Assembly: GCF_003334385.1 (NCBI RefSeq) | Contig: NZ_QOWN01000190.1 | Reading direction: 5' to 3' (one strand) | From: Escherichia coli | Lineage (GTDB): Bacteria > Pseudomonadota > Gammaproteobacteria > Enterobacterales > Enterobacteriaceae | DNA length: 363 bases | In this document: piece after piece, positions 1 through 363 of the stretch | How positions within the stretch are numbered: the first letter of the stretch is position 1 | Layout of the letters: every line of letters begins with the position of its first letter | Position numbers and translations under genes: made by a program | Notes under the pieces: generated by a model | What the model was told of the DNA's origin: nothing | Database searches by the model: none | The model's input: the letters and a program-made list of their open reading frames with translations, nothing else

Positions 1-363
1 CTGCCTGATGGTGTGGAGACATACGGGGTGTGGGGACTCTCCCTGCCGTCACTGCGCCGTCGCCTGTTCCGCTGTGTGGCCATCCGGGAAAACACGGACG
101 GCACCTTTGCCATCACGGCGGTGCAGCACGTACCGGAAAAAGAAGCCATCGTGGATAACGGTGCCCGCTTTGAGCCGCAGTCAGGCTCCCTGAACAGCGT
201 CATCCCACCGGCAGTGCAGCACCTGACGGTGGAGGTGAGCGCAGCTGACAGCCAGTATCTGGCGCTGGCGAAATGGGACACGCCGAGGGTGGTGAAGGGC
301 GTGCGCTTCAGTCTGCGCCTGACCAGTGGAAGCGGTGAGAACAGCCGCCTGCTGACCACCGCC
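1..363 (+). CDS. J: Internal fragment (both ends outside the window) of a lambdoid-phage host specificity protein J homologue (tail tip attachment protein), central region upstream of the C-terminal receptor-binding part
   Basis: Seen in sequence: frame +1 is open across all 121 codons; third-position GC is about 77% against about 64% overall; CTG, GTG, CGC and GCC codons dominate, as in enterobacterial coding sequence. Recognition from memory: the translation aligns colinearly with the lambda J segment I recall as ...PDGVAEYSVWELKLPTLRQRLFRCVSIRENDDGTYAITAVQHVPEKEAIVDNGAHFDG...PPAVQHLTAEV...WDTPKVVKGVSFLLRLT..., including an identical block AITAVQHVPEKEAIVDNGA. Not verified by any search. 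Confidence 0.87.
   Translation, partial: MPDGVETYGVWGLSLPSLRRRLFRCVAIRENTDGTFAITAVQHVPEKEAIVDNGARFEPQSGSLNSVIPPAVQHLTVEVSAADSQYLALAKWDTPRVVKGVRFSLRLTSGSGENSRLLTTA
1..363. mobile_element. Part of a lambdoid phage or prophage tail-gene module; only context is implied, and no element boundary lies in the window
   Basis: Inference from the J-like CDS: J homologues occur in the late structural operon of lambdoid phages and prophages. No att site, integrase or element end is visible, so phage genome versus integrated prophage cannot be distinguished. Confidence 0.7.

Follow-up and report, generated by a model that had tools for sequence, protein, structure and literature searches.

In phage lambda, the tail tip is closed by a trimer of gpJ, whose C-terminus binds the outer-membrane receptor (PMC11101478). 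[quoted passage not shown] In an F-type pyocin, the FNIII domains lift on tip opening as they do in lambda (PMC12874032), and the FNIII domains of pb3 in phage T5 are kept apart by a negative patch on their surface (PMC10721106). Carbohydrate adhesion has also been cited as an idea for the Ig-like domains of phages (PMC10721106). The known host-range changes in J lie at residues 960-1132, and Maddamsetti et al. tied indels to host-range loops in the C-terminus of J (PMC6646904). That study includes an entropy and gap profile over 1207 full-length J homologues, and its text covers only the C-terminal specificity region (PMC6646904). Neither of the texts on the lambda structures (PMC11101478 and PMC10721106) describes the loops of FNIII-1 at the level of residues.

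We analyzed a 363-nucleotide stretch of DNA from Escherichia coli (the window), which encodes part of a lambda-type J. Its last 45 nucleotides had drawn attention, in a sequence-only reading, as a Ser/Gly-rich segment that differs from lambda and might be a linker or loop preceding the next domain.

An internal fragment of gene J

The protein encoded by the window is the lambda-type tail tip attachment protein J (the central tail fiber or baseplate hub). Frame 1 of the plus strand is open across all 121 codons, with no stops, and the entire window (1-363, +) is an in-frame internal fragment of gene J that corresponds to residues 549-669 of the PhiR12_2 allele; the C-terminus of J is outside the window. 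The segment of interest, nucleotides 319-363, comprises codons 107-121 or J residues 655-669. The window is 100% identical to positions 41856-42218 of PV340550.1, inside the annotated J coding sequence of PhiR12_2. In that Escherichia phage, as in PhiR12_5, the gene is annotated as "tail tip host specificity protein J"; the window matches the PhiR12_5 gene at 100% as well, and also gpJ from prophages on two E. coli chromosomes. Against J from a large number of other lambdoid phages, Stx-converting ones among them, the identity is 93-97%. The translated window is 67% identical to residues 549-671 of lambda J (BLASTP, E = 7e-54), and when the full-length J was compared to PDB sequences with phmmer, residues 1-834 aligned to residues 1-836 of the lambda gpJ chains (E = 0). 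All five of the Pfam families of lambda-type J were found in the expected order (Table 1), with E-values of 6e-18 to 4e-40. As for gene order, the annotation of PhiR12_2 has M-L-K-I-J, and in the STEC17-183 prophage, the tape measure gene is followed by M-, L-, K-, and I-like genes and then by gpJ. This J is from a lambda-like E. coli phage or prophage, and FNIII-1 is the first of its two FNIII domains after the hub domains.

J fragments of this kind are common: the window matches 3134 of 5426 complete E. coli genomes, at a median of 2 places per genome. Since there can be up to 13 such places in one genome, J alleles that share one cell have ample chance to recombine.

We also considered whether the window might encode something else. 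The alternative open reading frames in the other frames are only 21-61 amino acids long, and none of them is supported. A scan of both strands of the window against Rfam, at E-values up to 1, did not find an RNA element.

The J of PhiR12_2 is annotated as just 954 amino acids, followed by a separate open reading frame for a 163-amino-acid "tail fiber protein." Relative to the 1176-amino-acid gpJ of the STEC17-183 prophage, which is 97% identical, the PhiR12_2 gene is missing one T, and CAGGGTGGA becomes CAGGGGGA. The missing T is at about L001 5190-5200 (about 43045-43055 of PV340550.1), outside the window. Because of it, the frame is shifted, and the central fiber and the receptor-binding part are cut off. 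Either the sequence is in error here, or the receptor-binding end is truly disrupted.

The positions of the domains are listed in Table 1. The domains named Ig_J and Ig_J_second by Pfam are termed FNIII-1 and FNIII-2 in the structural papers (PMC10721106, PMC11101478), and the Ig_J domain of this J is the FNIII-1 of the solved lambda gpJ structures. For the beginning of the window, we transferred the limits for lambda gpJ from PMC10721106, where the HDIV beta-sandwich insertion is at 483-569 and strand beta25 is at 570-578, via an alignment that is free of gaps in that part. [quoted passage not shown]

Table 1. Domains of J, features of the window (all on the plus strand), and predicted strands of FNIII-1
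Feature	J residues	Window nt	Basis and remarks
FNIII-A_GpJ	86-207		Pfam
Phage-tail_3	331-492		Pfam
End of HDIV beta-sandwich insertion and strand beta25 (lambda 549-578 equivalents)		1-90 (+)	Inferred by homology
HDIV-to-FNIII-1 linker region (long loop and short helix)		91-180 (+)	Limits inferred; holds the highly conserved AITAVQHVPEKEAIVDNGA
Ig_J (PF24421)	609-712		Pfam, model 1-104 of 104, E = 2.4e-38
First 61 residues of FNIII-1 (Ig_J, PF24421)		181-363 (+)	Pfam, AlphaFold, Foldseek; cut by the end of the window
Strand A of FNIII-1	621-630		Predicted (AlphaFold)
Strand B of FNIII-1	633-641		Predicted (AlphaFold)
Strand C of FNIII-1, RFSLRLTS	650-657	304-327 (+)	Predicted (AlphaFold; DSSP on model); model residues 47-54; the segment at 319-363 starts inside it
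Variable core, SGSGENS	657-663	325-345 (+)	C-C' loop GSGENS (nt 328-345) plus the last residue of strand C
Start of strand C' of FNIII-1, RLLTTA	664-669	346-363 (+)	DSSP; strand runs on to J 671
Strand C' of FNIII-1, whole	664-671		Predicted (AlphaFold); model residues 61-68
Strand E of FNIII-1	675-679		Predicted (AlphaFold)
Strand F of FNIII-1	684-693		Predicted (AlphaFold)
Strand G of FNIII-1	703-709		Predicted (AlphaFold)
Ig_J_second	714-816		Pfam
Phage_Tail_Tip	871-948		Pfam

The segment and its place in FNIII-1

In frame 1, the window ends with LTSGSGENSRLLTTA, preceded by KWDTPRVVKGVRFSLR. The segment is indeed rich in small residues, as the sequence-only reading had noticed: its 15 residues include 5 serines and glycines and 9 small residues (Ser, Gly, Ala, or Thr). 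Just 18 of the 940 windows of 15 residues in J have as many small residues, and SGSGENS is one of just 3 windows of seven residues with at least 5 serines and glycines. We asked whether the SGSG motif might have arisen from DNA repeats or slippage, but the repeats in the window are short, imperfect, and limited to two copies, its inverted repeats are weak, both are at the level expected by chance, and the codons AGT GGA AGC GGT do not form an exact tandem repeat.

The lambda segment that had been given for comparison, LTVTADDGSERLVSTA, is exact and corresponds to residues 656-671 of lambda J (NC_001416). It is more acidic, as had been claimed, with 3 acidic residues versus 1 in the peptide from the window, and it is longer by one residue. 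The BLASTP alignment of the two has a gap of one residue, with identity at 7 of the 15 positions from the window. The strand anchors around the loop, LRLT and RL, are identical in lambda gpJ; the difference lies between them, where the window has SGSGENS and lambda has VTADDGSE, so the loop in the window is one residue shorter and is Ser/Gly-rich instead of acidic. This divergence is moderate, as 98 of 821 windows of 15 residues are equally or more divergent from lambda, and across FNIII-1 as a whole, identity to lambda reaches only about 55-65%. Other parts of J, namely 511-548 and 811-870, differ from lambda far more, so we rejected the idea that the segment is where J diverges most.

Outside the fiber, the HDIV beta-sandwich insertion is the part of J that is most divergent from lambda. 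Blocks of 30 residues in the insertion have 40-53% identity to lambda, and stretches of 15 residues around J 511-548 (L001 3887-4000, which directly precedes the window) share only 2-5 residues with it. The first 20 codons of the window (nucleotides 1-60) belong to this insertion.

To place the segment in the fold, we used an AlphaFold model of J 604-721, built from an alignment of 41 homologues, and assigned the strands with DSSP. The model is a seven-strand FN3 sandwich with a mean pLDDT of 85 and a pTM of 0.75. When it was compared to the PDB with Foldseek, the best hits were to lambda gpJ (8iyk, 8k35, 8xci, and 9e7m, with E of about 1e-10), and the next hits were to the FN3 domain of POMGNT2, the FNIII domains of sDscam, monobodies, and cytokine receptors (E of 1e-4 to 1e-3). 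The core tryptophan in strand B (W640) is invariant among close homologues, and the core tyrosine in strand F (Y686) is 91% conserved among close homologues and at least 90% conserved among distant ones. The domain is an FN3-type Ig-like domain by its full profile match, its seven strands, and its core Trp and Tyr.

In the model, strand C ends with LTS, the C-C' loop consists of GSGENS, and strand C' begins with RLLTTA; four further strands of FNIII-1 (C', E, F, and G) come after the loop. GSGENS forms a six-residue gap between strands that is modeled as a short helical turn, and the block of model residues 51-60 has a mean pLDDT of about 90. Because the model has this turn with high confidence, the loop may be ordered rather than floppy. 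From the standard strand topology of FN3 domains, the C-C' loop would be at the pole near the C-terminus of FNIII-1, towards FNIII-2. A small polar composition of Ser, Gly, and Asn is typical of a flexible exposed turn.

In summary of the comparison to known systems, this J shares its Pfam architecture, its gene neighborhood, and its FN3 fold with lambda gpJ (8IYK, 8IYL, 8K35, 8XCG, 8XCI, and 9E7M), but the window carries another allele class of the whole FNIII-1. The J proteins of Stx-converting and other lambdoid prophages or phages (BP-4795, VT1-Sakai, STEC17-183, and PhiR12_2) are closer: they have 93-100% nucleotide identity and the same SGSG-type loop, and they differ in the segment only by point changes such as N662D, S659N/K, E661Q/T, and L666V. 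More broadly, the PF24421/FN3 class, which includes the FNIII domains of T5 pb3 and the central fiber proteins of F-type pyocins, shares the seven-strand sandwich, the Trp in strand B, and the Tyr in strand F, as well as the location after the hub domains and the lifting away on tip opening. However, most of the distant members have a tight C-C' turn where the lambda-like clade has an insertion of 4-7 residues.

Variability of the loop among homologues

We compared J to about 100 distinct close relatives, obtained from a search of 5.8 billion proteins, across 173 residues. These sequences are partial fragments of about 300 amino acids or less, so they serve for the FNIII-1 region and not for a comparison across the full length. 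The residues on either side of the loop are conserved: R654 and L655 never vary, and conservation is 97% for T656, 96% for R664, and 94% for L665. Between them, J 657-663 has seven consecutive columns with an entropy of 1.5-2.3 bits, which is the longest run of high entropy in the 173 residues. Thus the core is variable among homologues of lambda J, and the local divergence that had been described after the conserved WDTPRVVKGV block is confirmed, along with the expectation that the segment would not be conserved across J homologues. The variable part is narrower than the 45 nucleotides that had been singled out, as it spans nucleotides 325-345.

Among the close relatives, the core between the LRLT and RL anchors is 7, 8, or 10 residues long. 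We distinguished three classes of loops: the lambda type, V[TA]ADDGSE (VTADDGSE in lambda itself); the type in the window, SGSG[EQ][ND]S, with SGKGTDA as a variant; and a third class, TGSGKEGDPV. The classes are linked to the neighboring strands (VSFLLR...RLVSTARTTETTYRF versus VRFSLR...RLVTTAITADTEHRFS versus VRFVVR...RLVTTATTSETEYAFH). Because each class is tied to one version of the strands, the loop differs within alleles of the whole domain and is not an independent cassette.

For a more distant comparison, we used 41 homologues with 27-45% identity, found by searching 1.84 billion cluster representatives exhaustively. In 35 of the 41, there are only 5 residues between the anchor positions, which form a tight turn (for example, KLYRDGKLY), versus 9 residues in the window and 10 in lambda. 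Relative to these 35, the core amounts to 4-5 inserted residues. This implies that the lambda-like enterobacterial clade carries an insertion of 4-7 residues. A few of the distant lineages have independent insertions, such as RTFDGN, TRTNPE, or TPDGQ.

Within the window's own class, 80 loci from IMG/VR and the reference gave 65 distinct nucleotide sequences across 173 codons. Nine of the 49 extra amino acid alleles are in the 7 codons of the core (out of 173), which makes it the top window of 7 codons (P = 0.007, permutation test on the window maximum). Counted as nonsynonymous versus synonymous, the extra alleles give a ratio of 9:7 for the core and 40:108 for the other codons (one-sided Fisher P = 0.019), with counts that ignore phylogeny and recombination. 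The core is a local hot spot for amino acid changes, and relaxed constraint and positive selection fit this equally well.

A few other positions in this region stood out. The highest amino acid heterozygosity of the 173 codons in this class is not in the C-C' loop but at the junction of FNIII-1 and FNIII-2, PAAP-x-x-x (J 714-718; L001 4496-4510, outside the window), where the alleles are A, K, or V at 714; G, S, or T at 717; and I or V at 718. Three residues of this J are minority alleles: in place of L666 (window 352-354), V is present in 89% of close homologues; in place of G673 (L001 4373-4375), nearly all have D or E; and in place of R698 (L001 4448-4450), nearly all have Q. The last two follow shortly after the end of the window.

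Explanations for the divergence

The segment is very likely the C-C' beta-hairpin of FNIII-1 in a lambda-like J, with a divergence that most probably comes from relaxed constraint on an indel-prone tip. The C-C' loop lies outside the core of the beta-sandwich, which would relax the structural constraint on it and allow substitutions and indels to be tolerated. Mosaicism of whole-domain alleles among the many copies of J in E. coli would add to the divergence of the loop. Our data show which gene and domain this is, where the segment lies in the secondary structure, and how it varies in sequence and length; the tip of the hairpin is presumably exposed to solvent and without a specific function. 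In the closed cone, the loop could contact a neighboring subunit or FNIII-2.

It is extremely unlikely that the segment is a flexible Ser/Gly-rich linker between domains or a boundary loop before the next domain. SGSG does resemble designed linkers, and the proposal of a loop was correct, but the segment matches positions 47-61 of the 104 positions of the Ig_J model, in the middle of the domain, and the strands that flank it, C and C', belong to the same sandwich in a high-confidence model. The actual linker, between HDIV and FNIII-1, is upstream of the segment at about J 579-608; on the downstream side, about 45 residues separate the segment from the junction of FNIII-1 and FNIII-2, near J 712-714, with the next domain beginning at about J 714. 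A location away from any domain boundary is what the sequence-only reading had itself named as speaking against it, and the segment is in the center of FNIII-1. Another proposal places the loop on the surface as an adaptive determinant, with diversifying selection acting via weak contacts with LPS, O-antigen, or capsule. The core does have the highest density of amino acid alleles in the region and a raised ratio of nonsynonymous to synonymous alleles (9:7 versus 40:108); indels define the allele classes of the loop, which is a pattern that has been tied to host-range loops in the C-terminus of J (PMC6646904); and PMC10721106 cites carbohydrate adhesion for these domains. However, these allele statistics are modest and ignore phylogeny and recombination, and each class of loop goes entirely with one allele class of the domain as a whole, which fits mosaic inheritance. 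Moreover, the changes in J that are known to affect host range are at residues 960-1132 (PMC6646904), and given the standard FN3 topology, the loop would face FNIII-2 instead of facing freely outward. We therefore consider this explanation unlikely. If the loop did have an adaptive role, J would have a second variable surface besides the C-terminal specificity region.

The loop might instead be in an interface of the closed cone, with the neighboring gpJ, FNIII-2, or the helix bundle, so that its charge tunes the dissociation of the FNIII trimers and its classes coevolve with their partners. In lambda, the FNIII trimers seal the tube and dissociate when LamB is bound (PMC11101478), and the negative patch that keeps the FNIII domains of T5 pb3 apart (PMC10721106) means that surface charge on these domains matters. 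The class of the loop also covaries with the rest of FNIII-1, and the acidic residues number 3 in lambda and 1 here. Yet residues at interfaces are usually conserved and are not the most variable stretch, and most of the distant homologues do not have the insertion, so we view an interface as quite improbable. We also doubt that the clade-specific insertion of 4-7 residues in the C-C' hairpin is functional and diversifying, whether through glycan contacts or as a charge-tuned latch for the opening of the FNIII cone; if it were, the allele classes of the loop would mark functionally different tail tips. As for a docking site for the side tail fiber, we rejected this candidate: the collar domains of gpStf in Ur-lambda bind gpV and gpM, not FNIII-1 of gpJ (PMC12617516).

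Relaxed constraint on the tip of the C-C' hairpin is thus our preferred explanation. The sequence, the gene, the domain, and the fold are already catalogued, by Pfam (Ig_J), by the solved structures of lambda gpJ (closed and open), and by thousands of annotated copies in E. coli prophages. The original observation about the segment was correct but ordinary, and its interpretation was partly wrong. For annotation, the correction is that the Ser/Gly-rich stretch is the C-C' hairpin loop inside FNIII-1 and not a linker or a domain boundary. The natural alleles of the loop include substitutions and changes in length of up to about 7 residues. Given this tolerance, tags or peptides could plausibly be inserted in the loop when lambda-type tail tips are engineered.

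Finally, some very large proteins of 1600-5271 amino acids (P0152, P0162, P0166, P0171, P0221, and others) match FNIII-1 in 14-22 separate stretches. These proteins seem to consist of FN3-like repeats, arranged in long arrays and related to Ig_J.
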